Shown here: positions 3,120 through 60,224 of the stretch, one piece after another | Position numbering within the stretch: position 1 is the stretch's first letter | Layout: the number at the start of each line of letters is the position of its first letter | DNA from: an uncultured Gemmatimonadales bacterium | Lineage (GTDB): Bacteria > Gemmatimonadota > Gemmatimonadetes > Gemmatimonadales > GWC2-71-9 | Assembly (NCBI GenBank): GCA_963795085.1 | Contig: CAWCFX010000002.1 | Location: 32,001-96,000, forward strand | Direction: 5' to 3' | DNA length: 64,000 bases | Made by a program: the position numbers and the translations under genes | Notes under the pieces: model-generated | Seen by the model: the letters and a program-made list of their open reading frames with translations, nothing else | What the model was told of the DNA's origin: nothing | The model's database searches: none

Positions 3120-3280
3120 GAACGGGGCGGTAGAACAAAGGGCGGGAGAACAGAGGCGGTAGAACAACGGGCGGGAGAACTGGGCGGGAGAACAGAGGCG
3201 GTAGGAAAAGGGCGAGAGAACTGGGCGGTAAAACAGAGGCGGTAGGAAAGGGCGGTAGGAAAAGGGCGGTAGAACAGGGT
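3120..3280 (+). repeat. Degenerate tandem array, about 11 units of 13-15 bp, GGCGG(T/G)AG(A/G)A(C/A)..; left arm flanking the four-helix-bundle gene
   Basis: Read directly: ggcggtagaacaaag ggcgggagaacaga ggcggtagaacaacg ... Confidence 0.9.
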
Positions 3281-3304
3281 TGGGTGGCCGGTGGGGGAGG
3301 CAAG

Positions 3305-3685
3305 CTACGGGTTTTCCGGCGTCGGGGTTATTGCCCTGGTCACGGCACGGCTGAGTTTCCACACCAGGCGACCGGCCCTGTCCCGCAGGAGATCCAGTCC
3401 GGCCCATTCATCTTCTGGCAAGTAGCCGAGGTCCCGGCCGAGCAACAGGCAGTACGACAGTTCCGAGGCCGACCCCAAGGCGATGTCCAGGAACCGGCGA
3501 AACTCCCGGGGGCCTCGCTTGGCGGAGCCCTCGGCAATGTTCATCGGAATCGAGTAGGCTGCCCGCCGTGCCTGCGAAGTCAGCTCAAACCGTTCACCCG
3601 GCGGCCAGGTCCCGGTTGCCCGATAGACGGCAAGGACCAACTGGTGGCTGACTTGCCACGCCCGAAAGCGTTGGTAGGGTAGCAT
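3305..3685 (-). CDS. Four helix bundle protein (23S rRNA intervening-sequence protein / Avd-like family)
   Basis: 126 aa: AWQVSHQLVLAVY..T..WPPGERFELTSQARRAAYSIPMNIAEG...EFRRFLDIALGSASEL, the family signature. Confidence 0.92.
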   Translation of the reverse strand: MLPYQRFRAWQVSHQLVLAVYRATGTWPPGERFELTSQARRAAYSIPMNIAEGSAKRGPREFRRFLDIALGSASELSYCLLLGRDLGYLPEDEWAGLDLLRDRAGRLVWKLSRAVTRAITPTPENP

Positions 3686-3766
3686 GTTGCCAACCTGGCG
3701 ACGGAGCGTCAACCCACTCACAAACTCACCCACCACAACGAGTTGGAGCAGCTCCACCCGGCTCAG

Positions 3767-3943
3767 CTTACCGCCCTTTTCCCGCCCGCTATTCTCCCGC
3801 CCGGAGTTTCTCCCGCCCTGTTTTACTGCCCTCTGTTCTACCGCCCGTTGTTCTCCCGCCCTGTTTTACCGCCCCCTGTTCTCCCGCCCTGTCTTACCGC
3901 CCTCTGTTCTCCCGCCCGTCGTCCTCCCGCCCCTTTTCCTACC
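3767..3943 (-). repeat. Same 13-15 bp array in inverted orientation (about 12 units, TTCTACCGCCC / TTCTCCCGCCC); right arm
   Basis: Reverse complement of the 3120-3280 units. Confidence 0.9.
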
Positions 3944-3958
3944 TCTATGCATCAGCCC

Positions 3959-4005
3959 TTGCCCTTCGGTGCACTTTCGGGTAATATGGTTCGGCTTCCC
4001 TTCGG
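3959..4005 (+). promoter_or_regulatory. Putative sigma70 promoter of lexA (TTGCCC-N17-TAATAT) overlapped by two TTCGG-N6-TTCGG direct-repeat boxes (candidate SOS boxes)
   Basis: -35 at 3959-3964, -10 at 3982-3987; TTCGG at 3965, 3976, 3990 and 4001. Confidence 0.6.
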
Positions 4006-4024
4006 TCACCCCCGGGAGACAACC

Positions 4025-4633
4025 ATGCCGCTTACCAAGCGCCAGAGTGAGATCCTCGCCTACCTCCAGGACTACATCAGAGATCACAGCTACGCGCCCA
4101 GTTTCGAGGACATCGCGGAGCATTTCGAGTTCCAGTCGCTGGCCACGGTGCACGAGCACCTGACCAACCTGGAGCGCAAGGGCTATATCCACCGCACCCA
4201 TAATGAAAGCCGGTCGATCGAGGTGCTGCCGCCCAAGGGGCAGGCGGGTGCCACCGAGATCCCCATCCTGGGCAAGGTCGCCGCGGGTACCCCCATCGAG
4301 TCCCTGATGCATGAAGAGACCCTGGCGGTGCCGGACCAGATCCTGCCCCGGCGAGGTCCCAATTACGCCCTCAAGGTCCGGGGCTCGTCCATGATCGACG
4401 AGCATATCATCGATGGCGACTATGTCGTGGTCCATGGCCAGAACGCGGCCGAAAACGGAGAAATGGTCATCGCGCTGGTGAACGGGAGCGAGGCCACCGT
4501 TAAGAAGTTCTTCCGGGAACCCGGCGGCTGGATCCGGCTGCAGCCGGCCAACGAAACCATGCAGCCCATGCGCTTCCAGGAACGGGACGTGCTGATCCAG
4601 GGAGTGGTGGTGGGGGTGATCCGGAAGTACTGA
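4025..4633 (+). CDS. lexA: SOS repressor LexA
   Basis: MPLTKRQSEIL..YAPSFEDIA winged HTH; VAAG cleavage site; GSSM catalytic Ser; TVKK catalytic Lys; GGAG RBS. Confidence 0.97.
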   Translation: MPLTKRQSEILAYLQDYIRDHSYAPSFEDIAEHFEFQSLATVHEHLTNLERKGYIHRTHNESRSIEVLPPKGQAGATEIPILGKVAAGTPIESLMHEETLAVPDQILPRRGPNYALKVRGSSMIDEHIIDGDYVVVHGQNAAENGEMVIALVNGSEATVKKFFREPGGWIRLQPANETMQPMRFQERDVLIQGVVVGVIRKY

Positions 4634-4645
4634 CGGGCTCTAAGA

Positions 4646-4829
4646 CGAGGGCGGGAGAAGATGGCGGTAAGAATAGGGCGGTAGGAATAGGGCGGTAGGA
4701 CAAGGGGGCGGGAGGTCGGACCGGGAGAACAAGGATGTACCCGTTCCACGGCCCTCCTTTACCGCCCTCCTTTACCGCCCTCCTTTACCGCCCGTCGTTC
4801 TCCCGCCCTTTGTTCTACCGCCCTGTTCC
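4646..4829. repeat. Inverted pair of the same GGCGGTAG arrays (4646-4733 / 4751-4829) with a short spacer and no gene
   Basis: gggcggtaggaatag... followed by ...cctcctttaccgccc...gttctaccgccctgtt. Confidence 0.85.
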
Positions 4830-4868
4830 TGGCTCAACCCCGCGCCGGTTCCTGCCGATACAGCCTTC

Positions 4869-5513
4869 ATGACGGAAACCAAGATCTGCGGCATCACCGC
4901 GGCCGAGGATGCGGTCACGGCGGTGGCCGCCGGGGCATCCTACCTCGGGGTGGTGTTTACACCCGGGGCCCGGCGGGTGGAGCCCGCGTTGGCCCGGGAC
5001 ATCGTCCTCGCCGCGGGGCAGACGCCGGTGATCGGGGTCTTTGCCGGCCGTCTCCGGGTCAGCGAGATCCTGGATATCACTGCGGCGGCTGGTTTCGCCG
5101 GCATGCAACTGGCGCCGCCCCACTCGACCGCCGATGCCCGGCGAATCCGCGCCATGGGATACCTGGTCTGGCGGAGCATGCCACTCGAGTCCGACCGGGA
5201 TCTTGCCTGGTTGGCCGGCGTACGGGAGGCCGCCAGTGCCGTGGTGGTCGGTCCCCCGCCTCGGCATGGTGTTGGCGGAAACCCGGTCTTGTTACCTTTA
5301 GAACTGGCGCGGGAGGCGCGCGCCCACCTTCCCGGTCACCAGATGGTTCTTACCGGCGGACTCACGCCCCACAACGTGGGGAACGCGATTGCCGAAGTGC
5401 GGCCCGACATTGTCGAACTGGCCCTTGGCGACCCAACCCGAGCCGGCAGCACCGACGCCGGCCGAATTCAGCAATTCATGGAGGCAGTGATTGCGTCTTA
5501 CGCGCCACGCTGA
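4869..5513 (+). CDS. Phosphoribosylanthranilate isomerase-like protein (divergent TrpF)
   Basis: TKICGIT, GASYLGVVF, LTGGLTPHNV; several C-terminal active-site motifs altered. Confidence 0.75.
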   Translation: MTETKICGITAAEDAVTAVAAGASYLGVVFTPGARRVEPALARDIVLAAGQTPVIGVFAGRLRVSEILDITAAAGFAGMQLAPPHSTADARRIRAMGYLVWRSMPLESDRDLAWLAGVREAASAVVVGPPPRHGVGGNPVLLPLELAREARAHLPGHQMVLTGGLTPHNVGNAIAEVRPDIVELALGDPTRAGSTDAGRIQQFMEAVIASYAPR

Positions 5514-5549
5514 CACTCGGAGCGTTCTCCCCTGCCGGGGCATCCGGTA

Positions 5550-7262
5550 ATGGGGGAGACTCTCGGCGCCTCCGCTATCCTGCCGCCGGCGCACGTCGAG
5601 GAACTGATCAAGACCATGATCAAGGCGCTGCGCGCCTTCCAGATGTATCTCCCCAACAACCCGATCTACCAGAAGGCCCAGGCCAATATCGTCGAGGCCT
5701 TCGTGCCCGTCTGGGACGCCACCGACGAACTGGTCCTGGCCATCGTCGAGACCGACTTCATCTGGGACGAGAACGTGGTGTACAGCCAGGCCAACAAGAG
5801 CGAAAGCCTGGCCTGGACGCTGTACAAGGACGGGATGCGGGTCCTGACGTTGAAACGCGGGGTGGAGCGGGCGGAGATGGCGAAGTTCCTGGAGGTGGTG
5901 CAGAAGGCCCGGATGCTTCCGGCCGATGCCAACGATGATCTCAACACCCTGCTGTGGGAACAGCAGTTCGAACGGATCGAGTACCGCTTCACCGACTTCC
6001 TCACCGATGCGGCCATGCCCGAAGCCACCGGGGAGTACGGGGCCGCCGGCGCCGGCGAGGAGGTCCAGGCCCAGGTCCAGGAAGAAGTCGCCGAAGCCAA
6101 AGAGGAGGGGCCGGGCCGGACCGGTATCGTGGACCTCGAGGATTTCGATTCCACCCTCTACTTCCTGGACGAGAACGAAATCACCTACATGGCGCGGGCC
6201 CTGGAGCGGGAATATCACCAGGACTTCCGCAGCTCGACGCTCAACATCCTGCTGGACCTGCTGGAACTGCAGACCGAGGAGACAGTGCGGGAGGAGCTCT
6301 TCGGCATCTTCGAGACGCTGATGCCCAACCTGCTCAACGCCGGAGAGTTCCGCCATGTCGCCACCATCCTCAGGGAGGCCCGGGTCATCGGCGAGCGGGC
6401 CAAGGGCCTGACCGACGACCAGCGCCGCCGGCTGGAAAGTTTCCGGGGCCAGTTGAGCGACCCCGCCGTGCTGACCCAGCTGCTGCAGGCGGTGGACGAA
6501 GCGACCGCGGCCCCGTCCGCCGACGACCTGGGCGAACTGTTTCGTGAACTGCGTCCCGGGTCGCTGGAGACCATCCTGGTGTGGCTCCCCCGGATCACTT
6601 CCGCGACCGTTCGCAACCTGCTGGTGGAGGCGTCGGAACGGCTGGCCGCGGCGAGTCCCCAGGAGATGCTCCGGCTGCTGGCCCTGACCGGGTCCGAGGC
6701 CCTGGCCGGCACGATTGATCTTTGCGGACGGCTCCAGTTGCAGGGGTCGGTTCCCGGTCTCGGCTCAACCATGACGCACGAGAGCCAGCCTGTCCGGCTG
6801 GCCAGCGTCAAGGCGCTGGTCGCCATCGGCACCGCCGGGGCGCTGCAGGCGCTGGAGCGGGCCCTCGACGATGCCGACCGGGAGGTCCGCATCGCGGCGG
6901 TGCGCGCCCTGGGAACCCGGGGGTATAAGAACGCGCTCAAGCGGCTCCAGGAGGCGGTCCTCAACCGGGGCCTCAAGGACGCCGACCTCACCGAGCGCAT
7001 CGCGTACTTCGAAGCCTATGCCATGGTGGCCGGACCCGCCGGGCTCGAGCCGCTGGCCCGCATCCTCCTGCCGGGTGGTGTGTTCAAGCGGAAGGAATCG
7101 GCGGAGAGCCGGGCCTGCGCCGCGAAGGCGATTGCCCTGATCCGGAGCCCGGAGGCCAGGGCCATCCTGGAAGAGGCCCGCGAGGACAAGGACCTGGTGG
7201 TGCGGAACGCGGTGACCCGTGCGCTCCGGGAGTCCACCGCGGTCCGGGAGCCGGGCCGATGA
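5550..7262 (+). CDS. HEAT-repeat domain protein
   Basis: C-terminal repeats (VRLASVKAL, DADREVRIAAVRALG, ESRACAAKAIA, VVRNAVTRAL). Confidence 0.85.
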   Translation: MGETLGASAILPPAHVEELIKTMIKALRAFQMYLPNNPIYQKAQANIVEAFVPVWDATDELVLAIVETDFIWDENVVYSQANKSESLAWTLYKDGMRVLTLKRGVERAEMAKFLEVVQKARMLPADANDDLNTLLWEQQFERIEYRFTDFLTDAAMPEATGEYGAAGAGEEVQAQVQEEVAEAKEEGPGRTGIVDLEDFDSTLYFLDENEITYMARALEREYHQDFRSSTLNILLDLLELQTEETVREELFGIFETLMPNLLNAGEFRHVATILREARVIGERAKGLTDDQRRRLESFRGQLSDPAVLTQLLQAVDEATAAPSADDLGELFRELRPGSLETILVWLPRITSATVRNLLVEASERLAAASPQEMLRLLALTGSEALAGTIDLCGRLQLQGSVPGLGSTMTHESQPVRLASVKALVAIGTAGALQALERALDDADREVRIAAVRALGTRGYKNALKRLQEAVLNRGLKDADLTERIAYFEAYAMVAGPAGLEPLARILLPGGVFKRKESAESRACAAKAIALIRSPEARAILEEAREDKDLVVRNAVTRALRESTAVREPGR

Positions 7263-8743
7263 CCGACTCCACCGCCGGCCGTTCCCCGGCCCCCGATTCT
7301 CCCCGGCCGGGATCCGGGGGAGAAGGCGCCCTGCGCCATGCCGGCCGCGGGTTCCTGCTGGCCTTCTACACCGGGCTCCGGAGCCTCAAGCTCTATCCCA
7401 TCGAGAACGCGACCGCGCAGAAGGCGCTCGACGATCTCCAGGCGGCGGCCGGCAGCCTGCTGGCGACCGAGGAGGATATCGAACTGCGCCTCTCCGGCGA
7501 TTTCCTCTTCCTCAACGGCACCCGGCTCCGGCTGGAGCTCGAGAACTACGCGTCGTTCAGCTACATCCTGGCCATGTTCCGGAGCTTCAACATCGGCACC
7601 GTCCACGTGCAGCGGGAGGTCGAGCGCCGGGAGTGGCAGATCTTTATCGGGCTGCTGCTCAATCTCTCGCCGATGGAAGAGGGCCCCGCCAAGCTGCTGG
7701 CGCTGACCGAACGGATGCGGAGCGGCGGCGTCACCCGGATCGACCTGGAGCCCACGGTCGAAACCCAGGACGAACTGGATGAACTGGAGCGCGCCAAGGA
7801 ACTGGCCAAGCGGACCTACACCCAGGGCGTGGCCGTCACCAAGGAAGTGGTCAACAGCATCCGGATGGGCCGCACCGCGAGCATCAAGAAAGTCAAGCGG
7901 GCGGTCCAGTCCATCGTGGACCAGGTGCTGAACAACGAGACCTCGCTGATGGGACTCACCACCATCCGCGACTACGACGAATACACGTTCACCCATTCGG
8001 TCAACGTCTGTATCTTCTCGGTGGCGCTGGGCCGCCGGGTGGGGTTTACCCGGCTGCAGCTCTATGACCTGGGGCTCGCCGCGCTCATGCACGATATCGG
8101 CAAGGCGCGGATTCCCATCGAGATCCTCAACAAGACCAGCGGCCTCGATGAAAAGGAGTGGTTTGTCATCCAGGCCCATCCCTGGATGGGCGCGCTCACC
8201 CTCTTCGAAATGCGGGGCTACAGCGAGATCCCGTACCGGTCGATCGTGGTGGCCCACGAGCACCACATGAAAATCGACCTCACCGGGTATCCCCGGGTGG
8301 TGCGCCCGCGGGAACTGGGATTGTTTTCCCGTATCGTCGCCGTGGCCGACGGCTTCGACGCCGCTACCACCCGGCGCGCCTACCAGAGCGTGCCGATCCA
8401 GCCGGACGAAGTGCTGCGGGAAATGTGGGAGAACCCCCGGCGCGGCTACGATCACGTGATCGTCAAGGCGCTGATCAACCTGATCGGCGTCTATCCGGTC
8501 GGGACCTGCGTGATCCTGGACACCTTCGAGGTCGGCATCATCGCGGGCCCCAATCCCGACCCCGCGTTCCTCAACCGCCCGCTGGTCAAGATCGTCATCG
8601 ATCCCGATGGCGCCGTCATGCTGCCGCCAGCGCGCACCATCAACCTGGCCGAACGCGACCCGTCCGGCGCCTTCCTCCGCTCGATCGTCAAGGTGACCAA
8701 TCCGGACCGCTATGGCCTCACCGTCGGCGATTACTTCGTCTAA
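7259..8743 (+). CDS. HD-GYP cyclic dinucleotide phosphodiesterase (RxxQ variant)
   Basis: YTFTHS, LMHDIGK, HEHH....TGYP, VADGFDA, RRAYQ; ATGA-coupled to the HEAT gene. Confidence 0.9.
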   Translation: MTDSTAGRSPAPDSPRPGSGGEGALRHAGRGFLLAFYTGLRSLKLYPIENATAQKALDDLQAAAGSLLATEEDIELRLSGDFLFLNGTRLRLELENYASFSYILAMFRSFNIGTVHVQREVERREWQIFIGLLLNLSPMEEGPAKLLALTERMRSGGVTRIDLEPTVETQDELDELERAKELAKRTYTQGVAVTKEVVNSIRMGRTASIKKVKRAVQSIVDQVLNNETSLMGLTTIRDYDEYTFTHSVNVCIFSVALGRRVGFTRLQLYDLGLAALMHDIGKARIPIEILNKTSGLDEKEWFVIQAHPWMGALTLFEMRGYSEIPYRSIVVAHEHHMKIDLTGYPRVVRPRELGLFSRIVAVADGFDAATTRRAYQSVPIQPDEVLREMWENPRRGYDHVIVKALINLIGVYPVGTCVILDTFEVGIIAGPNPDPAFLNRPLVKIVIDPDGAVMLPPARTINLAERDPSGAFLRSIVKVTNPDRYGLTVGDYFV

Positions 8744-8755
8744 GCCGCCGCCGGC

Positions 8756-10831
8756 ATGAACGTCCGGGTCATCCTCGACTGGTATGCCCGCCTGCTCTCC
8801 GGGCTGGGGATCCTGGTCCTCGCCGCCGCCGCGGTCCGCGATCCGGGCTGGCTCCGGCACCCGCAGCTCGCCCTGCTGCTGCTGGGCATGGTGGTCCTCC
8901 TCCGGGGCGGCCAGATCTCGCTGACCAAGTATGCCTACCTGACCCAGATCGGGGTGCCCGCGCTGCTCGGCGGGATCATGATCGGCCCCGGCGCCACGAC
9001 GCTGGCCCTGGGAATCGGCGTCCTGGGGACCGACCTCTTCTGGGTGCGGAAGAGCGTGGCCGCGGCCCTGGTCAACGCCGGCCGCGAGGTCATCGCCTTT
9101 GTCGCCGCCTACGGTCTCTTCGCCGGGGTGCTGGCGGTGACCCGGCCGGAAGGTTTCACGCTCGACTATCTCCCGGCCGCGGCCACCCTGGCCGCGATGT
9201 ACTTCTTTCTCTCCCGCTCCCTGTTCTACTTCACGCTCCTCTTCCGGAACAAGCTGGAGAGCGACGAGCGGCTGGTCATCCTCCGGTACGAGCTGCTGAC
9301 CTACCTGCTGACCATCGCGGCGGTGACCGTGCTCATCGGCGCGATGCAGAGCCTGTCCGCGCCGGGCTGGGTCACCGTCCTCCTGGTCGTCGGGGTCATC
9401 GGGCTCCTCACCAAGCGGATCCTGGAGGAGGCGATCGCCGCCGAGGAGTTGAACAAGGTTCATGTCCGCGAGAAGGTGATCGCCGGTAATCTCAGCCTGC
9501 AGGACTCCTTCGCGGAGATGGAGCGGCTGGCGCACCGGCTGCTCGACTGGGGGGACATGCGGGTCTATCGCGCGGCGGGTGCCGGTGCGGCGCTCATCTA
9601 CCGCGGCGCGTATGGCCGCGACACCCGGCACCAGCCGCTCTACGACGCGGAGGGGCTCCGGGCCGAAGTCATCCGGACCGCCCAGCCGATCGTGATCACC
9701 GATGCCGCCCGGGACGCCCGGGTCACGACGCCGGACCCTTCTGCCCGGAGCATCCTGATCGCGCCGCTCCGCCTGGGAAACGAGACCATCGGGACCCTGG
9801 AACTGGAGCACCACAAGCGTCACGCCTACCGGGAACGGGACATGGAAGCGGTCCGGACTTTTGCCGGGCAGCTGGCCACCGCCATTCACATCGCGGACCT
9901 GCGCCAGCCCCTGGTCGAAACGGTCGAACGGATCGGCCGCCAGGTCGAGAGCTTCGGGCGGCACGCCGAGATGCTGAAGCAGACCACCCTCGCGGTGGCG
10001 GCGGGCTCCCAGTCCATCCGGGCCGGGATGTCCGACCAGGGCCGGCTCGTGAAAACCGGCCTCGACACGACGGGTGACGTCTCGCGCGCGGTGACCGACA
10101 TGGCCAGCGAAGGCGCCCGGGCCGCCACCGCGGCGGAGGCGGCCAGCGCGGTGGCCGCCACCAGCCAGGGCACCATCGGCGACGCCATCCAGCGGCTGGT
10201 CCAGCTCAAGAGCGTGGTGGCCGACAGCAGCCGGGAGGTAGAGGAACTGGGACGGGTGACCAGCCGGATCAACGAGTTCATCGGCTCGATCCGGGAGATC
10301 GCGGACCTCACCAACCTGATCGCCCTCAATGCGGCGATCGAGGCGGCCCGGGCGGGCAAACACGGCCAGGGATTTTCAGTCGTGGCCGACGAAGTCCGCA
10401 GCCTGGCCGCCCAGAGCGCGGGAGCTTCCCGGGAGGCGGCGGTCCTGCTGGAACTGATCGGGGGGCAGGTGGCGACCATCGCGGCGCTGATGCAACGGGG
10501 CCAGCTGGTGGTTGGCGGGGTGGAGGACCTGAGCGCCTCGGCCGGCCGTGCCCTTACCGCCATCGTGGAATCGACGCGGGAGGCGGGATCCCACGGGCGC
10601 CAGATCGCGGCCACCGCGGCCGCCCAGCAGCGCACCTTCAACCAGTTGCGGGGCCAGATCGACCAGATCGCCGCAGTCGCCTGGAAGACGCTGGAGGAGG
10701 CCAACGATATGGCCGCCCGGGCCGCCCAGGCCACGGACGGCCACCACGAAATGGAGCAGGCGATCCGGGACCTGGGCGCCGTGGCGAACCACCTGCAGGA
10801 CATCGCCAGGACGTTCAGTGCGGAGGGATGA
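8756..10831 (+). CDS. Methyl-accepting chemotaxis-like protein with multi-TM N-terminus and GAF domain
   Basis: [33 protein letters not shown] signalling tip; GAF-like SILIAPL..GTL..YRERD. Confidence 0.9.
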
Positions 10832-11342
10832 ACCGAAGGGGCAAGAGGGAAGGGCGGCTGGGCCGGGCGAATCCGGAAATCCGCCGAGCCCGGTTCGCGC
10901 CTACCTGGCCCTGGGGAGCAACCTCGGCGACCGGGCGGCCCACCTGGCGTTCGCGCGCCACGAGCTGGGACTCCTGCCCGGCTCCCGGATCGTGGCGAGT
11001 TCCGCGGTGGAAGAGACGGCACCATTGGGCGGCAGGGTGCAGCCGCCCTATCTTAATCAGATGGTGCTGCTGGAGACCGGCCTGTCCCCCCGGCAGTTGC
11101 TCGATGCCTGCCTCGCCATCGAGGACGCGGCCGGCCGGATCCGGCGCGAAGCCTGGGCGTCGCGCACCCTCGACATTGACATCGTGCGCTATGGGGACGA
11201 GACCATCCGGGAGCCGGGACTGGTCGTTCCGCATCCCGGATTCGCCGAGCGGGAGTTCTGGCAGCGGGAGCTCGCTGAAATCGAACGGGCCCTGAATGCC
11301 GGCTCACTGGCCCACTGGCCCACTGACCCACTGACCCACTGA
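10818..11342 (+). CDS. folK: 2-amino-4-hydroxy-6-hydroxymethyldihydropteridine diphosphokinase
   Basis: [27 protein letters not shown]; start uncertain (GTG 10818); C-terminal tail is encoded by the 8-bp repeat. Confidence 0.92.
11303..11342 (+). repeat. 8-bp tandem repeat CCCACTG(A/G), 5 units, ending at the folK stop and abutting the panB ATG
   Basis: ctcactgg cccactgg cccactga cccactga cccactga. Confidence 0.85.
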
Positions 11343-51343: not shown

Positions 51344-52498
51344 ATGGCTGACCTTGATGTCTCCAAGAGACTGGCCCGGCTCGCCCGGGTGCGCGCCGGA
51401 AATCACCGCGTGGTGTCCTGCTACCTCAAGCTGGAGCCGAGGGACCGGAGCCGCGGCAAGTATCTCATCAAACTCAAGAACCGGGTCCGGACCGTCAGCG
51501 AGGCGCTGAACTACATTGACCTGCCCCGGGGCGGCCGCGAGGCCGTCCTGGCGGACCTCGCCCGGATCGAAGACCACCTGAAGAACCCGGGCAACCTCCC
51601 GTCCAGCCAGGCGGTCGCCGTCTTCGCCGCCGAGTCACTTGGGCTGTTCGAAAGCGTTCCGCTGCCCTGGGTCTACCGTTCGCGCCTGGTGGTGGACCGG
51701 ACCCCGCTGACCCGGGAGCTTGCCTCGATCGCCGACGAGTTCGGCCGCCTGCTGACCGTGGTGTATGACCGCGCCAGCGCCCGGATCTTCGAAGTCACCG
51801 CGTTCGAATGCCGGGAAGTGCTCGGCGTCCCCGCCATCTACACCCGTGGCAAACGCTACAAGGGCGAGAAGCAGGGGATGTTCGGGCCCAGCGAGCACGA
51901 TTACCATACCCGGATCCGGGAAGAAAAGAATCGGCATTTCGACCACATCGCGCAGCAGCTCTTCCAACTCAACCAGCGGGAGCCGTACCTGGGCCTCATC
52001 CTGGCCGGTACCGGCAGCGATGCCGGCGCGCTGGCGCCTTTTCTCCACAGCTACCTGGCCGACCGGGTGATGGGCGTCGCGAAGCTCAATCCCAAGAATG
52101 TGAGCGCCGCCGGGGTACGCGAAGCGTCGCTGGACGTGCGCCGCGAATGGGAGCGGCAGTCGGAGCGGGCTCTCATGGCGGAGCTGGAAGAGTCGCTGGG
52201 CAACCGCTGGGCGGTGAACGGTATGGCGCCCACGCTTCGGGCCCTCGCCCGGGGCCAGGTCCGCACCCTGCTGGTCAGCGCCGATGCCGCCCAGCCCGGG
52301 TTCCGCTGCAAGGATTCCGGGCGCCTCACGCTGGCTGAGCGGGATTGCCGCGATGAGGGCGGTGGCGAAGCGGTCCTCGACGTGGTGGACGACGCCATCG
52401 AAGAGGCCCTGCGCCAGCGGGTGAACGTCAACGTGGTTTACGACGAGGATGTCGTCGGCAAGATCGAAGGGCTGGCCGGCCTGCTGCGCTTCCGGTAG
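51344..52498 (+). CDS. Bacterial aeRF1-like (baeRF) release-factor superfamily protein
   Basis: VVSCYL N-domain, DRASARIF middle domain, AVNG..TL.AL..GQV..LLV...GLAGLLRF L7Ae-like C-domain; no GGQ. Confidence 0.75.
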
Positions 52499-52542
52499 GC
52501 CGGTCCCGCCCCCGGCTGGCCACCTTTGATCTCGAGGGATGC

Positions 52543-52974
52543 ATGCACGCCACCAGGACCAGAAAACTCGCTCGCCCCATTCGTGTTCTCGTCGCCAAGC
52601 CGGGACTGGATGGCCACGATCGCGGCGCCAAGGTCGTGGCCGCTTCCCTGCGCGATGCCGGCATGGAGGTGGTATACACCGGACTGCACCAGACGCCCGA
52701 CATGATCGCCCGGGCGGCGGTCCAGGAGGACGTGGACGTGGTGGGACTCTCGATTCTCTCCGGGGCGCACATGACGCTCTTCCCCCGGGTCAAACAGCTG
52801 CTGGCCGACATGGGGCGGCCCGAGATTCTCGTCACCGGCGGCGGGATCATCCCCCAGGATGACATGGATGCGCTGGAAGCGCAGGGCATCGGCCGGCTCT
52901 TCGGGCCGGGTACTCCCACGACCGATCTCATTGAATACATCCGGGGCTGGGCCCAGGCCCACCTGGAAACCTGA
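52543..52974 (+). CDS. Cobalamin-binding small subunit of the mutase (IcmB-like)
   Basis: [29 protein letters not shown]. Confidence 0.93.
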
Positions 52975-52977
52975 GCC

Positions 52978-54615
52978 GTGCCGGTCCCCGCCTCGTCCGC
53001 CCGGCCCAGCCGGCTCCGGACGCTCACCGACGAATATCAGCGGCTCGCGGCCACCCTGCGCCAGGGCGGCGGGGCCAAACGCATCGCGAAGATGCACGAG
53101 CAGGGCCGGCTTTCTCCCCGGGAACGGGTGGAGCAGCTGGTGGATCCCGGCACGCCCTGGCTGGAGTTGGGGCTCCTGGTCGCCTATGACCAGTACGATG
53201 GCCAGGCCCCCGGCGCCGGCGTCATCACCGGACTCGGCGTGGTGGAAGGCCGCGAAGTCGTCATCGTAGCCAACGATTCCACGGTCAAGGCCGGGTCGTG
53301 GTGGCCGGAAACGATCAAGAAAATGCTGCGCGCCCAGGAAGTCGCGATGCGGCAGCGGATCCCGATCATCTACCTGGTGGACAGCGCCGGCGTCAATCTG
53401 CCCTACCAGGGCGGCGTCTTCCCCGGCCAGTACGGCGCGGCCCGCCTCTTCTATTACAACTCCATCATGCGGCGGTACCTGCACGTGCCGCAGATCAGCG
53501 CCGTCATGGGGAGCTGCATCGCGGGCGGGGCGTACCTCCCGGCGCTTTCCGACGTGATCTTCATGGTGGACGGCACCAGCTTCATGGGGCTCGGCGGACC
53601 CAACCTGGTCAAGGGCGCGACCGGCCAGACGGTGGACGCCGAGTCGCTGGGCGGCGCCCGCACCCACACCTCGGTCAGCGCGGTGGCGCACTACCGCGCG
53701 GCCACCGACGTGGAGTGCCTGCGCCGGATCCGGGAATACCTGGCCCGGCTCCCCCGGCGGGACGGCGTCCGGCACCGGGTCGATGCCGGGGCGCCGCCCA
53801 GCCGGCCGGTGGAAGAACTGTATGACCTGCTCCCCCAGGACCACCGCATGTCCTACGACATGCACAAGGTGCTGGCCTGCGTGCTGGACGGCGGGCGGCT
53901 CGACGAGTTCCAGCCCGAAGCCGCGGGCGAGATGTTGTGCGGCCATGCCCGCATCGAAGGCCACCCCGTCGCCGTGCTGGCCAACCAGCGGGGGCTGGTC
54001 AAGGGGCAGCCCGGGGTGCCGCCCCGGACCGGTGGGATCATCTACACCGAGAGCGCCGAGAAGGCGGCCTACTTCATCGAGAACGCGAGCCGGGAACGGC
54101 TCCCGATCCTGTTCGTCCAGGACGTCAGCGGCTTCATGGTGGGGCCGGAGGCCGAGCATTCGGGGATTATCCGGGCGGGGGCCCAGTTCGTCGAGGCCAT
54201 GGCCACCGCGCTGGTCCCCAAGATCGTGCTCACCGTGAACCACGCATCCGGGGCCGGCTACTACGCGATGGCGGGGCAGGGGTTTGATCCCGATTTCATC
54301 CTCAGCTGGCCAACCGGGCGCATGGCGGTCATGGAAGGCGAATCGGCGGTAGGCGCCGTGCACGGCCCCGAAATGGACAAGGCCCGCCGGTCGAAGGCCG
54401 ACCTTCCGCCCGACGTCCAGGCCTCGGTCGAGGCCATGCGGGCCGACTACGAGCACCAGCTGGATGCCCGGTACGCCGCAGCCCGCGGGTTCGCCGATGC
54501 GATCATTGCGCCGGAAGAAACCCGGGACCAGATCGCGTTCCTCCTGCGGGTGACGGCAAACTACGCCGGCCCCCACGTGGGTGCCTTCATCCTGCCCGAA
54601 GGTCTCGGGCGTTGA
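52978..54615 (+). CDS. Acyl-CoA carboxylase carboxyltransferase (beta) subunit, methylcrotonyl-CoA carboxylase-like
   Basis: RERVEQL, ANDSTVKAG, VDSAG, AGGAY, GPNLVK, GAGYYAM. Confidence 0.9.
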   Translation: MPVPASSARPSRLRTLTDEYQRLAATLRQGGGAKRIAKMHEQGRLSPRERVEQLVDPGTPWLELGLLVAYDQYDGQAPGAGVITGLGVVEGREVVIVANDSTVKAGSWWPETIKKMLRAQEVAMRQRIPIIYLVDSAGVNLPYQGGVFPGQYGAARLFYYNSIMRRYLHVPQISAVMGSCIAGGAYLPALSDVIFMVDGTSFMGLGGPNLVKGATGQTVDAESLGGARTHTSVSAVAHYRAATDVECLRRIREYLARLPRRDGVRHRVDAGAPPSRPVEELYDLLPQDHRMSYDMHKVLACVLDGGRLDEFQPEAAGEMLCGHARIEGHPVAVLANQRGLVKGQPGVPPRTGGIIYTESAEKAAYFIENASRERLPILFVQDVSGFMVGPEAEHSGIIRAGAQFVEAMATALVPKIVLTVNHASGAGYYAMAGQGFDPDFILSWPTGRMAVMEGESAVGAVHGPEMDKARRSKADLPPDVQASVEAMRADYEHQLDARYAAARGFADAIIAPEETRDQIAFLLRVTANYAGPHVGAFILPEGLGR

Positions 54616-57398
54616 TTCCCCGGTCTTTTCCCGCCCGCGCTCTCGCCGCGGTACTGGTCCTGGCCGGCTGCGCCTCGGCCCGGTCCGCCATGGAGCCCGG
54701 CCGGGCCGACCCGGCCTCGCCAGTGCGGGATCCGGGCCCCCCGCCGGCGGAGCGGTGGTTTTCCCAGGAACCGGCCCAGGCCTTCCAGTTGCAGAAGATG
54801 CCGCTCTACACCACCGGCGTTCCCCGGTTTCTTCGTGACAACCCGGAGTCGGACGGCCGCGGAGTACTGATCGGCATCCTCGACAGCGGCATTGACGCGG
54901 GCATCCCGGGTCTCGCGCTCACCAGTACCGGCGACCGCAAGATTCTCGACCTGCGGGATTTTTCCGGCGAGGGACTGATCACCCTGGCCCCCGTCAATCC
55001 GCGGCACGATACCGTCCTGGTGGGCGGCGTTGCGCTGGGCGGCTTTGGGCGGGTCATCCTGTTCAACGCGGCGGGGCCCTGGTATGGTGGGGTGATCGCG
55101 GAGATCGCGCTGGGCTCGGGGCCGGCCGCCGACCTCGATGGCAACGGGTCGGCCGGTGACACGCTTGCGGTAATCGTCACCCGGGCCAGTGACGGCTGGA
55201 TCCTGCTTGCCGATACCGACCGCGATGGGTCCCTGGCCGGCGAGAAACCGATGCGGGACTACCTGGTGGGCCGCGACGTGTTCACCTGGTCACGGACGGG
55301 TAAGCAGGGCCAGGTGTCGGTGGCGGCCAACCTGTCCGACTCGGGCGGGCGTCCCGTCCTCTCGCTCTTCTTCGACACCAGCGGTCACGGTTCTCACGTC
55401 GCGGGCATTGCGGCGGGGTGCAACCTGTATGACGTGCCCGGCTTCCACGGGGTGGCCCCCGGCGCCCAACTCCTCGGCCTCAAGATCGCGAACAACGCGC
55501 AGGGCGGAATCTCTACCACCGGCAGCATGGTTCGCGCTATCGAGTACGCGATCCGGTTCGCCGCCCGCCGGCGAATGCCGCTGGTGCTCAACATGAGTTT
55601 CGCCGTGGGGAACGAAGTCGAAGGCCAGGCCCGTATTGATCACCTGGTCGATTCCATTCTTGGCGCGCATCCCGAGCTGGTCCTGGTCCTGAGCGCCGGG
55701 AACGACGGACCCGGCCTTTCCACGCTGGGCTTCCCCGCCAGCGCGCAGCGGGCCCTGACGGTGGGGGCGGTCCTTCCCGGCGATCCGGATGAACCGGCCG
55801 CGAGCCGGCGGGAGCCGGTCGCCTACTATAGTGGCCGCGGGGGAGAAGTGGCGAAGCCGGAGGTCGTCGCTCCCGGGACCGCCTACTCGACCGTGCCGCT
55901 TTGGGACCGGGGGGAGGAGGTAAAGAGCGGCACCAGCATGGCGGCGCCCCACGTCGCCGGACTGGTCGCCCTGCTCACCTCGGCTCAGCTGGCCGATGCC
56001 CGCCCCCGGCCGTCGGCTCGGCTGATCCGTCATGCGCTGATGGTGACGGCGCGCCCCATCCCCGACGCCTCCTTCGCGGACCAGGGGACTGGAATTCCCG
56101 ATGTCGGGGCGGCCTGGCGCTGGCTCCGAGGCGGGTACGCCGATGCCGAGGTTGACGTGCGGGCCGAGTCGGGAGTCACCGCGTCCTTTCGTCCCGCCTT
56201 TACGGACTCGGCGCAACGATTCACGCTCACTCGGCCGGCCGGGCTTCCGCCGGCCACCTTCACCCTGCGGAGCAATGTCGAGTGGATCGTGCCTCCGGGC
56301 TCGGTCACCATTTCCGATACCGCCGCGATCGTCACGCTTCGGCTCCGCCCCGGCCCGGGGTCGCCGGAGACGCACAGCGGGGTGGTGACCGGGTGGCCCG
56401 CGGATACGATGGCGGGGCCGGCATTCCGGCTGGTGACGATCCGCGGGCACGCCGTCACCTCGGTAGGCGGGATCCGGGAACCGGTTGCCATCCCTATCGC
56501 CGCGGGTGACGAGCGCCGCCTCTTCATCATCGCCGACTCAGGCCGGCCGTTCGTCGCGCGGGCGCGGATCGGCAGCCGGCAGCCGTTGCTGGTGTTTCTG
56601 CACGAGCCGAACGGAATGCCGCTTCGGGGGGCCGAGCCCCAGATCGCCGGGGCCGGCGATGAGGAAGTCTCCTTCCAGGTGGATGGCCGCGATGCGGTGC
56701 CCGGCGCCTATGAACTGGTCGCGGTCGCGCCGCCCACCGAACCCAGCTCGGCCCGGTTCGAAGTTGCCGCCGCGCCCTTCGCCTTCGATGCCCGGCGGGA
56801 GGCCGCCGGCGTCGTCGCCCGGGTGAAGCCGGCCGCCGGCCACCACGTCCGCCTCGGCCTGGTGGGCGGTGAACGGGTGGTCCATGTGGCGGCCCGGGGC
56901 AGTGACACCGTGACGGTGTCCTTCGTGGTGCCGGAGTGGGCCACCAGCCTGGCGGCCGACCTGGCGATGGCGCGCGACCAGTGGAGCCGGTTTACCGATT
57001 TCGGGTTCAGCCTCTTCGATTCCACCGGTGCCATCCTCGAAACCGCCCCGCTCAACTACGCCTTCGGCCGAATGGAGGCCGATTTCGACGCCGGGCAGCC
57101 GGCGCGGCGGATGTCGCTGCGGCTGTTCGCGGCGCTCGCGGAACCGGGAAGCGAGGAGTCGTGGCTGGCTACCCTGTCCATTCGGCTCTACGCCGGCCGG
57201 CCCGTGCGGCTCGCGGCCGCCCCTGCCGGGTCGTCGGCCCCCGGGGACGAAGAACTGACCGTGTTTCCCTTCCCGCCATTCCCCTGGACGCTGGGCGAGG
57301 AGTTCGTGCCCCTGGGTGTTCTTGAAATCGACCAGAAAGGCGCTACCTGGTCCCGGGAAATTCCCTTCCCCGAACCCGTAGCCCCGCTGATGCGATGA
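54612..57398 (+). CDS. S8 subtilase, tripeptidyl-peptidase II-like, probable lipoprotein
   Basis: DGRGVLIGILDSGID, HGSHVAGIA, SAGNDGP, GTSMAAP; LAGC lipobox. Confidence 0.88.
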   Translation: MIPRSFPARALAAVLVLAGCASARSAMEPGRADPASPVRDPGPPPAERWFSQEPAQAFQLQKMPLYTTGVPRFLRDNPESDGRGVLIGILDSGIDAGIPGLALTSTGDRKILDLRDFSGEGLITLAPVNPRHDTVLVGGVALGGFGRVILFNAAGPWYGGVIAEIALGSGPAADLDGNGSAGDTLAVIVTRASDGWILLADTDRDGSLAGEKPMRDYLVGRDVFTWSRTGKQGQVSVAANLSDSGGRPVLSLFFDTSGHGSHVAGIAAGCNLYDVPGFHGVAPGAQLLGLKIANNAQGGISTTGSMVRAIEYAIRFAARRRMPLVLNMSFAVGNEVEGQARIDHLVDSILGAHPELVLVLSAGNDGPGLSTLGFPASAQRALTVGAVLPGDPDEPAASRREPVAYYSGRGGEVAKPEVVAPGTAYSTVPLWDRGEEVKSGTSMAAPHVAGLVALLTSAQLADARPRPSARLIRHALMVTARPIPDASFADQGTGIPDVGAAWRWLRGGYADAEVDVRAESGVTASFRPAFTDSAQRFTLTRPAGLPPATFTLRSNVEWIVPPGSVTISDTAAIVTLRLRPGPGSPETHSGVVTGWPADTMAGPAFRLVTIRGHAVTSVGGIREPVAIPIAAGDERRLFIIADSGRPFVARARIGSRQPLLVFLHEPNGMPLRGAEPQIAGAGDEEVSFQVDGRDAVPGAYELVAVAPPTEPSSARFEVAAAPFAFDARREAAGVVARVKPAAGHHVRLGLVGGERVVHVAARGSDTVTVSFVVPEWATSLAADLAMARDQWSRFTDFGFSLFDSTGAILETAPLNYAFGRMEADFDAGQPARRMSLRLFAALAEPGSEESWLATLSIRLYAGRPVRLAAAPAGSSAPGDEELTVFPFPPFPWTLGEEFVPLGVLEIDQKGATWSREIPFPEPVAPLMR

Positions 57399-58765
57399 AG
57401 CGTCCGGTCCGGATCGCGGCGGGTCAGGGGTTCTGGGGCGACTGGCTGGAGGCGCCGGTCCGCCAGCTGGAGGGCGGACCCATCGACTACCTGGTCCTCG
57501 ATTACGTCGCGGAAGTCACCATGTCCATCATGCAGAAACAGCGGGCCCGGGATCCCTCCCAGGGATACGCCCGCGATTTCGTGGCGCTGATGGACCGGGT
57601 GCTGCCCGATCTGGTCAAAAAGAAGGTCCGGGTCATCTCCAACGCGGGCGGCGTCAACCCGGTGGCCTGCGCCGAGGCGGTCGTCCAGTCCGCCCGAAAG
57701 CAGGGACTGGCGGGCCGGCTCAAGGTCGGCCTGGTGACCGGTGACGATATCATGGGCCGGCTGGATGAGCTGATAGCCCGGGGGCATTCCTTCACCAACC
57801 TGGACACCGGCGAACCGCTCAGCGGCATTCGCGCCCAGGTGCAGGCCGCGAATGTCTATCTCGGCATGGCTCCTGTGGTCCAGGCGCTGGACCGGGGAGC
57901 TGATATCGTGGTGAGCGGGAGGCTGGCCGACCCGGTACTGGCGCTCGGGCCGCTGTTCCATGAGTTCGACTGGGCGGCGGATGACTGGGACAAGGTTGCC
58001 AGCGGCATCGTGGCGGGGCACATCATCGAATGCGGCGCCCAGAGCTCGGGGGGCAACCTGCTGCGCGACTGGCGCAAGGTGCGGAACCTCGCCGACATCG
58101 GTTTCCCCATCGTGGAAGTGGCGGAGGACGCCAGCTTCGTGGTGACCAAGCACCCGGGCACCGGCGGCGTGGTCAACATCGCCAGCGTCACCGAACAGCT
58201 GGTGTACGAGATCGGCGATCCCCGGCGCTACGTCAACGCCGACGGGGTGGCGGACTTCACCTCGATTCGCCTGGCGCAGCGGGGCAGGGACCGGGTCCAG
58301 GTGAGCGGGGTCAGAGGCAAACCCAGGACCGCGCAGTACAAGGTTTCGCTGGCCTATTTCTACGGCTACAAGGCGGTCGGTACGCTGGTCTACAGTTGGC
58401 CCGAAGCCTACGACAAGGCCCGCGCTGCCGACCGGATCATTCGGGAACGGCTGGACGCCCTGGGGCTCGAGTTCGAGAAGATCCATACCGAGTACGTCGG
58501 GTACGACTCGACCCATGGGCGGCTGGCCGGCCCCCCGGATCCCGACATGCCCGAGGTGCAGCTCCGGATCGGAGTGCGGGCCCGCGACCGGGCGCCGGTG
58601 GAACGTTTTACCCGGGAGATCGCTCCCCTGGTCCTGACCGGCCCGCCTTCCGTTACCGGGTACGGCTACAAGCCGGACGTCAAGGAGATCGTCGCCTTCT
58701 GGCCCGCCCTGCTGGACCGGGCCGAGGTGGACCCGATGGTGAAGGTGGAGATTCTCGAGGCATGA
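57395..58765 (+). CDS. AtuA / DUF1446 family protein
   Basis: GFWGD, LDYVAE.TM, NAGG.NP, ANVYLG, GR.AD, GHIIECG, EQLVYEI. Confidence 0.9.
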   Translation: MKRPVRIAAGQGFWGDWLEAPVRQLEGGPIDYLVLDYVAEVTMSIMQKQRARDPSQGYARDFVALMDRVLPDLVKKKVRVISNAGGVNPVACAEAVVQSARKQGLAGRLKVGLVTGDDIMGRLDELIARGHSFTNLDTGEPLSGIRAQVQAANVYLGMAPVVQALDRGADIVVSGRLADPVLALGPLFHEFDWAADDWDKVASGIVAGHIIECGAQSSGGNLLRDWRKVRNLADIGFPIVEVAEDASFVVTKHPGTGGVVNIASVTEQLVYEIGDPRRYVNADGVADFTSIRLAQRGRDRVQVSGVRGKPRTAQYKVSLAYFYGYKAVGTLVYSWPEAYDKARAADRIIRERLDALGLEFEKIHTEYVGYDSTHGRLAGPPDPDMPEVQLRIGVRARDRAPVERFTREIAPLVLTGPPSVTGYGYKPDVKEIVAFWPALLDRAEVDPMVKVEILEA

Positions 58766-58775
58766 TGACTTCCTG

Positions 58776-59171
58776 ATGCCGAAATCGAAACCCCGGCCCG
58801 CGCCGAAGCCCAAGCGCACGGTACTCTGCCAGCTGCGCCAGCTGGCGCACGCGCGCTCCGGCGACAAGGGAGACACGGCCAACATCGGCGTGATCGCGCT
58901 GCATCCGGAACTCTATCCGGTCCTGGTCCGCGAGTTGACGGTGGCCCGGGTGGCCCGCCATTTCCGGGGCATGGCCGGCCGGGTCGAGCGATTCGAACTG
59001 CCCAACCTGAACGCGCTCAATTTCCTGCTCCACGAGGCGCTGGATGGCGGGGGCACGCTCTCGCTCCGGACCGATGCCCAGGGGAAAGTGTACTCCACGG
59101 CCATTCTCCGGATGGAACTTCGGATTCCCGCGGACCTGGCCCGCAAGCTCAAACTGAAACTGGACCGCTGA
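58776..59171 (+). CDS. AtuA C-terminal-like small protein
   Basis: ARSGDKGD.ANIG, VERFELPNL.ALNF, SLRTDAQGK. Confidence 0.88.
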   Translation: MPKSKPRPAPKPKRTVLCQLRQLAHARSGDKGDTANIGVIALHPELYPVLVRELTVARVARHFRGMAGRVERFELPNLNALNFLLHEALDGGGTLSLRTDAQGKVYSTAILRMELRIPADLARKLKLKLDR

Positions 59172-59174
59172 CCG

Positions 59175-59927
59175 ATGCTGCAGACCGAACTCTCCGGGGG
59201 AGTGCTCACCCTGACGCTCAACCGTCCCGAAAAGCGGAATGCGCTGGCGGCCGAGATGCTGGGCGCCCTCACCGCGGCCCTGGACCGGGCCGATCTGGAT
59301 GCCGATGTCCGGGTCGTCGCCATCCGGGGCGCCGGCAAGGATTTCTGCGCCGGCGCCGACCTGGCCGAACTGCTGGCGTCGGCGGACCAGGGGGTGGAGG
59401 CGAACGAGAAGGCCGCGCTGGAACTGGGCAACGTGTTTCTCCGGATCCGGGGCATCGCCAAACCGGTTGTCGCCGTCATCCACGGCCGGGCGCTGGCCGG
59501 CGGGGCCGGGCTGGCCACCGCCTGTGATATCGCGGTGGCCCGGGAAAGCGCCCGGATCGGGTATCCCGAAATCCTGCGGGGCTTCGTGCCGGCGATGGTG
59601 ATGACCATGCTGCGCCGGGCGGTGGGCGAGAAGCTGGCATTCGACCTGGCCGCGACCGGCAGGGTACTGACCGCGGGCGAGGCGGCGGCGGTGGGCCTCA
59701 TCTCCCGCGCGCTTCCCGATGCCGATTTCGAGGCAGAGGTCGCCGAGCTCCTCCGCCGGCTGGCCGATGCCGGGCCTTCGGCCATCGCGCTGACCAAGAA
59801 ACAGTTCTACCAGCTGGATGGCCTGGGGTTCGCGGAGGGCATCGCGCTGGGCGCCCGGGTCAACGCCCTGTCCCGGGCGACCCCGGAGTTCCGCACCGCG
59901 ATCGGCGCGTTCCTGACGAAGGAGTGA
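59175..59927 (+). CDS. Enoyl-CoA hydratase/isomerase (crotonase) family protein
   Basis: LNRPEKRNAL, FCAGADL, AGGAGL, YPE...GF.PA. Confidence 0.92.
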   Translation: MLQTELSGGVLTLTLNRPEKRNALAAEMLGALTAALDRADLDADVRVVAIRGAGKDFCAGADLAELLASADQGVEANEKAALELGNVFLRIRGIAKPVVAVIHGRALAGGAGLATACDIAVARESARIGYPEILRGFVPAMVMTMLRRAVGEKLAFDLAATGRVLTAGEAAAVGLISRALPDADFEAEVAELLRRLADAGPSAIALTKKQFYQLDGLGFAEGIALGARVNALSRATPEFRTAIGAFLTKE

Positions 59928-60085
59928 TGTTTCTCTCCCGGCTGCGACTGGTGCTGGGCCTCGGCGGGATGGCGTTTCTGCTGGCCGGGATCGCCCGTGG
60001 AAACCGGCTGATCGTGTGGGGCGCGATCGGACTGCTGGGCGGCTCCTTCCTGGTCCGGCTCTATCTGCGGAAGCGGGAAGGGTGA
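59927..60085 (+). CDS. Small 2-TM hypothetical protein (52 aa, below the ORF-track cutoff)
   Basis: TGATG coupling to the crotonase stop; MFLSRLRLVLGLGGMAFLLAG...IVWGAIGLLGGSFLVRLYLRKREG. Confidence 0.6.
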   Translation: MFLSRLRLVLGLGGMAFLLAGIARGNRLIVWGAIGLLGGSFLVRLYLRKREG

Positions 60086-60096
60086 GGTCCCCCAAA

Positions 60097-60224
60097 TTCT
60101 CTCAATTCCCTCAATTCCCACATTCCCTCAATTCCCACATTCCCTCAATTCCCACATTCCCTCAATTCCCACATTCCCTCAATTCCCACATTCCCTCAAT
60201 TCCCACATTCCCTCAATTCCCACA
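60097..60224 (-). repeat. 17-bp tandem repeat TTCCCTCAATTCCCACA x7 perfect (60106-60224) plus one 9-bp variant
   Basis: Read directly; contains the NTF2 gene stop. Confidence 0.95.

Follow-up and report, generated by a model that had tools for sequence, protein, structure and literature searches.

The 64,000-nucleotide stretch of DNA analyzed here (the window) comes from an uncultured Gemmatimonadales bacterium (assembly GCA_963795085.1, contig CAWCFX010000002.1, positions 32,001 to 96,000) and carries eleven strong short-unit tandem arrays, called by Tandem Repeats Finder (TRF) at 3119..60228, together with a weak repeat at the aspS stop. The arrays lie among genes that Pfam identifies as truA, lexA, PRAI (trpF-like), HPPK (folK), panB, LytR_C, a glycerate-kinase-like gene (DUF4147+MOFRL), two GMC oxidoreductases (GMC1 and GMC2), aspS, methylmalonyl-CoA mutase and an NTF2-like gene. 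Their units are directly tandem with no unique spacers between them, so they are not a clustered regularly interspaced short palindromic repeat array. Two of them enclose a small gene for a four-helix-bundle (4HB) protein that matches PF05635 at 104.1 bits (cut-off 33.8) and TIGR02436 at 99.7 bits (cut-off 24). An earlier note on this DNA had claimed that unrelated arrays present their purine-rich strand after stop codons and their pyrimidine-rich strand before starts, and had suggested that they may be solo arms of 4HB cassettes or RNA-level signals tied to translation termination, anti-Rho function or mRNA stability. Here, we report that the polarity extends across the genome, that it is a matter of geometry rather than of translation, and that the arrays share unit families and layout with the arms of the 4HB cassettes.

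The assembly that holds the window comprises 3.89 Mb in six contigs, with 67% G+C and 93% completeness. Genes were called with our own crude codon-score open reading frame (ORF) caller, which returned 3208 genes at 86% coverage with exact stops and approximate starts, and the genome-wide array set was built with TRF at a score of at least 50 and at least three copies. R denotes an array that is purine-rich on the + strand and Y one that is pyrimidine-rich on the + strand; purine-sense and pyrimidine-sense are used relative to a gene. Related genomes are draft assemblies and are read as samples. G000 is the window's own genome and G001-G004 are congeners; G004, sampled over 734 kb, has ~75% DNA identity to G000 and mostly different unit families. 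Certain genome counts, including the 31-genome RNase III count given below, take in the unpublished genome G018, on which no conclusion rests.

Across the whole genome, 318 of the 337 strong short-unit arrays are intergenic, with dominant periods of 7, 8 and 9, and the purine content of the intergenic arrays is strongly bimodal. The rule is obeyed by 225/275 typed arrays that have two flanking genes (binomial p=1.1e-27). Those nearest a stop are purine-sense in 148 cases and pyrimidine-sense in 38, and those nearest a start are pyrimidine-sense in 77 and purine-sense in 12. The rule holds on every contig, in 95/109 cases when only high-scoring neighbor genes are counted, in all ten typed intergenic arrays of the window (10/10, by our own gene calls), and in 53/63 typed arrays of the G004 sample. 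It is followed separately by families A (AATTGAGGG type, 59/69), B (CAGTGGG type, 47/58), C (AG(A/C)GTGC, which has no G runs, 36/42), D (GGCGG(T/G)A, 19/23) and F (AAGGGGGC, 16/18). The orientation is thus clearly not 50:50, random slippage does not produce it, and the earlier note was right that at least five unit families comply. The exceptions that it named are also genuine: the arms around the 4HB gene, the HPPK end, and a small ORF that faces the 17-mer array, which is pyrimidine-sense relative to it.

Two general causes were considered and rejected. Overall base composition does not account for the rule, as array-free spacers have a purine fraction of 0.48 after stops and 0.46 before starts. 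Replication strand does not either, as the + strand carries similar numbers of R and Y arrays (146 versus 129) and the rule is strand-symmetric. As a separate observation, called starts in array-free spacers are preceded by 30 nt of pyrimidine-rich sequence (purine 0.46) with no Shine-Dalgarno (SD)-like purine signal, which may reflect SD-independent or leaderless initiation, or imprecise start calls.

The polarity is geometric and depends neither on G-quadruplexes (G4) nor on translation. R arrays have the left gene as their nearer neighbor by 121:25, and Y arrays the right gene by 104:25, whatever the strand of the genes. Spacers with two arrays are ordered R..Y in 41 cases and Y..R in 1, and the corresponding counts in the G004 sample are 14 and 0. 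The rule is obeyed in 65/74 convergent and 28/34 divergent spacers. It extends to transfer RNA genes: nine typed arrays are located no more than 120 nt from a tRNA gene, and eight of them obey it relative to the nearest tRNA, at 5' and 3' ends alike; the remaining one is the distal arm of a pair. Defining G4-capable arrays by four G3 runs with loops of at most 7 nt leaves 140 of the 275 typed arrays incapable, and these comply (115/140) as often as the capable ones (110/135). R arrays start a median of 4 nt from their 5' neighbor and end a median of 65 nt from the other. Among spacers of at least 40 nt, occupancy is 30% for convergent, 13-14% for co-directional and 8% for divergent pairs. A termination-linked signal, the second suggestion of the earlier note, is therefore unsupported as the cause, because such a signal leaves the divergent spacers and the tRNA neighbors of a strand-symmetric rule unaccounted for. 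A crude scan found a canonical hairpin plus T-run within 110 nt at 9/135 stop-flush arrays (7%) versus 119/1088 array-free gene ends (11%); such intrinsic-terminator sites are rare throughout the genome.

The second line of evidence comes from the 4HB genes. PF05635 genes number six in the genome, and five of them are enclosed by an R arm and a Y arm. Four have strong arms, each pair from a separate family (13-mer GGGCGGTA type, ACAGTGGG, AGCGTGC, and 17-mer AATTGAGGG type); the fifth gene is truncated, with the short arms GGACTGA..CTCAGTA. These arm families are the main dispersed ones of the genome, with 69 (A), 58 (B), 42 (C) and 23 (D) typed arrays. Relative to the 4HB gene the polarity reverses the rule, R standing upstream and Y downstream, and the gene therefore sits inside the element. 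Since arms of dispersed families enclose 4HB genes, we treat the arrays and the genes as one system, and the proposed tie between arrays and 4HB cassettes is upheld by their common unit families and R..Y polarity.

The same arrangement recurs in relatives. In other Gemmatimonadota records, searched with the single window 4HB protein as query, 19/34 4HB loci are R..Y and 1 is Y..R, and most others are one-armed or have one flank missing. In G026, G004, G021 and G024, ~12/20 loci are R..Y, and their units match families that are dispersed in independent samples of the same genome. Over 51 loci, the identity of the 4HB proteins correlates with the 6-mers shared by their flanking units (Mantel r=0.43, permutation p<=0.0005), and the closest relatives of the window protein mostly have GGCGG-type units. 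Among 15 sampled relatives, five PF05635-less genomes gave 2 typed intergenic arrays in 312 kb, and several genomes with 5-8 PF05635 copies gave none in 80 kb. A literature search, which did not extend to subscription journals or supplements, found no paper tying PF05635/TIGR02436 genes to flanking tandem arrays and no match for intergenic tandem repeats in Gemmatimonas. The occurrence of at least five unit families under one rule in one genome and the link to 4HB genes appear to be new; the polarity rule itself is not (PMC4692102).

Paired arms have the sequence complementarity of hairpins. In 173 spacers with a single typed array, a complementary partner lies 3' of the R arm in 33 and 5' of it in 1; reversed controls gave 0 partners. 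Of the gene-less short-spacer pairs, 25/34 fold at z<-3 versus arm-shuffled controls. In the window, the two ~160-nt arms of the cassette RNA are predicted to pair around the 4HB ORF (in-silico fold, z -15.8). The features of the window are listed in Table 1.

Table 1. Tandem arrays and the 4HB gene of the window, in order of position (position 1 is the first nucleotide of the window).
Feature	Position	Strand	Context
R arm, family D 13-nt GGGCGG(T/G)AGAACA; left cassette arm	3119..3279	+	45 nt upstream of truA start (opposite strand)
4HB gene, 126 aa	3305..3685	-	PF05635 23S_rRNA_IVP + TIGR02436
Y arm (purine-rich on - strand); right cassette arm	3777..3940	-	~85 nt ahead of lexA start
R arm, family D	4641..4715	+	Begins 7 nt past lexA stop
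Y arm	4742..4824	-	44 nt ahead of PRAI (trpF-like) start; pairs with 4641-4715 (z -3.7)
CACTGACC array, pyrimidine-sense	11305..11342	-	Encodes HPPK C-terminal tail; flush with panB ATG
R arm AGTGGGTC	14061..14093	+	8 nt past LytR_C stop
Y arm (AGTGGGAC on - strand)	14152..14222	-	Includes TAG stop of glycerate-kinase-like gene
AATTGAGGG array, purine-sense for GMC1	22479..22554	-	Stop TAA within first unit
AGAGTGC array, purine-sense for GMC2	25694..25795	-	Stop TGA at first unit
Degenerate purine-rich GTGACGC/GCGACAG repeats	35674..35745	+	Overlap aspS stop; TRF score only 30
AGTGCAG array	51193..51295	+	Starts inside TAG stop of methylmalonyl-CoA mutase; G004 junction is a 5-nt spacer
17-nt AATTGAGGGAATGTGGG-type array, purine-sense for NTF2-like gene	60105..60228	-	Overlaps NTF2-like stop; G004 junction is a 3-nt spacer

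At four genes the stop codon is part of the first repeat unit, as had been noticed before: TAG-TGCAG for the mutase, TGA-GTGCAG for GMC2, TAG-TGGGAC for the glycerate-kinase-like gene, and TAA-TTGAGGG for GMC1. Within HPPK, the last nine residues (HWPTDPLTH) are encoded by the CACTGACC array, which also supplies the TGA directly before the panB ATG; HPPK orthologues have unrelated tails of similar length.

Orthologous junctions are frequently near-empty in the congeners. The mutase/baeRF junction is 5 nt and the small-ORF/NTF2 junction 3 nt in G004, and the GMC2/AP_endonuc junction is an ATGA overlap in G003; given these near-empty orthologous junctions, many arrays are lineage-specific and were added within operon junctions. 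Two to three congeners bear stop-flush arrays of different families in the same junction at GMC1/dh3 and at GMC2/AP_endonuc. Across 320 orthologous spacers of G000 and G004, both genomes carry arrays in 9, G000 alone in 18 and G004 alone in 32, and 261 are free of arrays in both. Sharing is more frequent than expected by chance (odds ratio 4.1, p=0.003), which may be explained by insertion-permissive spacers alone. The stops of lexA and LytR_C are ancestral, with the arrays 7-8 nt downstream, and the glycerate-kinase-like protein, whose stop lies in a variant unit, falls 2-3 residues short of its orthologues in length.

Several further observations concern the window and its repeats. The lexA gene (4025-4633) is inverted relative to truA when compared with all four congeners (G001-G004), and it is flanked by inverted arrays of one family (the Y arm at 3777-3940 and the R arm at 4641-4715); its orientation fits an inversion that would have occurred by recombination between these arrays. 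The 4HB cassette between truA and lexA is missing from the syntenic position in the congeners. The gene that follows the mutase array (51344-52498) matches baeRF_family10, a bacterial archaeo-eukaryotic release-factor-like family. A hydrophobic ORF of 52 codons (59927-60085), downstream of an enoyl-CoA hydratase gene, is conserved in G004 and is thus probably a genuine small membrane protein. Four metagenome runs over window positions 2601-22600 yielded only short, low-depth contigs and no informative array polymorphism. Elsewhere in the genome, a further recurrent element (core GAGTCATTGCGAGGAG...) stands beside several arrays (G000 C1:5769-5956, C1:9438, C1:12359, C4:17859 and C4:20713). In a composite-repeat cluster (G000 C6:737000-755000), a recurring spacer (…AGCTCCCGTGCGTCCCACTGAC…) connects CAGTGGG-type with AAGGGGGC-type arrays, in both orientations. 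Finally, a 24-nt tandem array of ~9 copies (G000 C4:546365-546576) adjoins a split Y1 transposase gene and is unrelated to the R/Y arrays.

Similar layouts are known from other repeat systems. Repetitive extragenic palindromic (REP) sequences and their doublets (REPINs) are dispersed intergenic palindromes enriched at 3' gene ends, and the gene for a REP-associated tyrosine transposase (RAYT) stands between inverted copies of its own family. The arrays described here are likewise dispersed, intergenic, palindromic in layout and enriched at 3' gene ends, and they too include small genes set between inverted copies of a family specific to each gene; they differ in having a 4HB gene instead of a Y1 transposase and tandem arrays instead of single 20-40-nt palindromes. 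The short tandemly repeated repetitive (STRR) heptamers of cyanobacteria are likewise short tandem skewed units dispersed in spacers. The Avd protein of diversity-generating retroelements belongs to the same fold family, and its DivGenRetAVD model (NF033474) weakly matches one paralogue, at 23.4 bits versus a cut-off of 80, and RVT_1 was not found in the genome.

The closest published parallel is that of Rehm et al. 2015 (PMC4692102), who described the same neighbor rule for one G-rich heptamer family in Xanthomonas and Nostoc. There, GGGAATC and GGGGA(C/T)T repeats lie "almost exclusively" nearer the 5' neighboring ORF, whatever the direction of that ORF. They occupy the coding strand where they adjoin or cover a stop, and the non-coding one where they precede an ORF. 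They frequently form inverted pairs of "convergent" orientation, they are rare between divergent ORFs, and no function was found. Our arrays have in common with these heptamers the intergenic tandem units, the 5'-neighbor rule, the convergent inverted pairs, the scarcity in divergent spacers, and a copy number and sequence that vary between relatives. They differ in comprising at least five unrelated unit families of 7-17 nt in Gemmatimonadota, with half of the arrays G4-incapable, as well as in the tRNA neighbors examined here and the link to 4HB genes, the latter unmentioned in the parts of PMC4692102 consulted. The intervening sequence (IVS) of 23S rRNA provides the other parallel. In Coxiella and Leptospira, a PF05635 (S23p/4HB) ORF lies between stem-forming complementary ends, and in the Coxiella IVS variable-copy tandem purine-rich heptamers stand upstream of the ORF and between those ends (PMC4990558). 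In contrast, the window cassette is located between the protein-coding genes truA and lexA rather than in a 23S rRNA helix, and its arms belong to a class of 30-160-nt tandem arrays.

Based on the observed, symmetric layout, on the link to 4HB genes and on the way in which protein and unit covary, we propose with moderate confidence that the arrays are a REP-like intergenic class of short purine-skewed tandem units with a fixed head-to-head layout, shared with the arms of 4HB cassettes. In this class, the G/A-rich strand runs 5' to 3' out of the neighboring gene into the spacer, so that both strands present a 5' R arm and a 3' Y arm. A full element would form a long imperfect hairpin, many copies consist of one arm only, and each large unit family has one 4HB gene between its own arms. 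The stop and start rule would then be the head-to-head layout as viewed from the neighbors, whatever their strand or translation. Arms may be deposited or lengthened at gene borders through copying of other arrays of their family, possibly with the cognate 4HB protein, and their orientation may then be maintained by selection. An R-first order would keep long C-rich untranslated RNA out of transcripts leaving a gene, and an R arm could provide T-purine-purine stops where it touches the end of an ORF. Such selection filters probably act on top of the architecture, because the stop-side bias is limited to at most 20 nt and the arrays often provide the stop.

Several results weigh against this proposal. 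Among stop-nearest arrays, the ratio of purine-sense to pyrimidine-sense is 132:16 within 20 nt of the stop and 16:22 beyond, a limit that a selection filter predicts better than a fixed polarity at birth. Arrays outnumber 4HB genes by about 50:1, family F (18 typed arrays) lacks a 4HB gene, and one weak 4HB gene lacks arms. No arrays were seen in 80-kb samples of the relatives G031 and G027, which have 5-8 4HB genes, and the presence of 4HB genes is therefore not sufficient. Among 46 4HB loci of other phyla, 19 have no arrays and the rest show mixed polarity, with less skewed flanks. No RVT_1 reverse transcriptase was found in the 93%-complete genome, R/Y arrays are absent from the 2.5 kb around each of the four Y1_Tnp hits, and none of the transposases has flanking arrays, so that these searches yielded no candidate copying enzyme. 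The RNase III domain PF14622 was found in 0/31 genomes of the order, several of them 98-100% complete (control genomes were positive in 8/14), and PF00636 was not found in the window's own genome; RNase III processing of the IVS type is therefore not to be assumed here. Finally, 139/173 single arrays have no detectable complementary partner, and in the spacer between LytR_C and the glycerate-kinase-like gene the 22-nt spacer of congener G001 is recognizable between the arms (one locus), so that the arms there were added beside each stop and not inserted as one cassette. The description of the arrays as solo arms of 4HB cassettes is too simple on these last two counts, although the shared unit families and R..Y polarity do stand. 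Two routes of spread were set aside on the same searches: RAYT-like mobilization, as the Y1 transposase genes are not flanked by R/Y arrays, and copying by reverse transcriptase, as no RVT_1 was found.

The strongest rival, which we nevertheless consider unlikely, places selection by Rho at the origin of the rule. Arrays would arise either way around by slippage or selfish spread, long C-rich and G-poor untranslated tracts would load Rho and be purged wherever the transcript has to continue, as at operon junctions and in 3' trailers, and only purine-sense arrays would persist after stops; C-rich tracts would persist only in transcripts that enter a gene from outside. Rho is encoded in the genome, and stop-flush arrays often occupy junctions that are 0-5 nt or overlapping in congeners, and thus lie inside operons, in purine-sense orientation. 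In co-directional spacers, 62 purine-sense arrays lie at most 5 nt from the upstream stop, and 53/78 pyrimidine-sense arrays lie more than 50 nt from it. R-first hairpins never leave the C-rich arm unpaired on either strand, and the tRNA neighbors fit as well. However, arrays 0-50 nt upstream of called starts are pyrimidine-sense in 49 cases versus 4 purine-sense, and would form leaders resembling Rho utilization sites unless the promoters are located within these arrays or downstream of them. Divergent spacers also comply (28/34), and the enclosure of 4HB genes by R..Y arms and the covariation of units with proteins are left unexplained. Judged from these positions, a Rho filter would fit the operon junctions and the R-first hairpins and would fit the start-proximal pyrimidine-sense arrays poorly.

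A role in translational punctuation is less probable still. The purine-rich strand, with T-purine-purine stops, GTG and TTG starts and SD-like GAGG, would be tolerated after an ORF, or would even help there by supplying a stop or a backup for it, and would be harmful before one as a source of spurious initiation. The overlap of stops by 62 purine-sense versus 5 pyrimidine-sense arrays points in this direction, as do the restriction of the purine bias at stops to 20 nt or less, the shortened glycerate-kinase-like protein with its variant-unit stop, the translation of the HPPK tail across a pyrimidine-sense array, and the presence of GAGG followed by TTG in AATTGAGGG. Yet tRNA-flush arrays (1-20 nt) obey at both ends where no translation takes place, R..Y pairs hold their polarity when both arms are far from genes, and arrays 0-5 nt past an intact stop are still purine-sense in 47 cases versus 4 pyrimidine-sense. 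The lexA and LytR_C arrays, 7-8 nt beyond ancestral stops, argue against this explanation as well.

An origin in transcription-driven mutation is improbable by a further step. Nascent, ribosome-free RNA past stops would form R-loops, which G-rich non-template repeats would stabilize and which would expand those repeats by feedback. Consistent with this, 109 purine-sense arrays begin at a stop or no more than 5 nt from it, and 30% of convergent but 8% of divergent spacers of at least 40 nt are occupied. The same mechanism predicts purine-sense 5' leaders, yet 77/89 start-proximal arrays are pyrimidine-sense; the geometric rule is also followed in divergent spacers and at tRNA 5' ends, and the process offers no reason for the 4HB link. 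Last, regulation by G4 elements, the role put forward for the heptamers of Xanthomonas and Nostoc, is hardly credible here as the cause of the polarity. About half of the arrays (135/275) are G4-capable and in-vitro G4 formation is reported for GGGNATC repeats (PMC4692102), but incapable arrays obey equally, including 36/42 of the G-run-less AG(A/C)GTGC family.

Returning to the REP-like class with 4HB cassettes, we tentatively extend it by a further step, which we hold to be improbable at present: that 4HB proteins are sequence-specific partners of their own tandem-repeat family, and that cassettes of gene plus arms seed or homogenize gene-less arms genome-wide at gene borders. The pentamer of 4HB subunits is known from the Xcc0516 structure (PMC4990558). 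Such a pentameric ring could read successive units of the purine-rich strand, although repeat binding is purely something we infer.

Skewed 7-9-nt intergenic arrays have long been known in cyanobacteria and xanthomonads, and the 4HB proteins of IVSs have been known for equally long; to our knowledge, neither has a known function. If 4HB proteins are indeed partners of their arrays, they would together form a repeat-protein system comparable to REP-RAYT that operates without a transposase, and the same reading would also cover the rRNA intervening sequences and the cyanobacterial and xanthomonad heptamer arrays. The geometric nature of the polarity narrows the mechanisms available for the earlier observation in Xanthomonas and Nostoc. 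Overall, this genome unites skewed arrays and 4HB genes in one system, which makes the question of their relationship directly testable.

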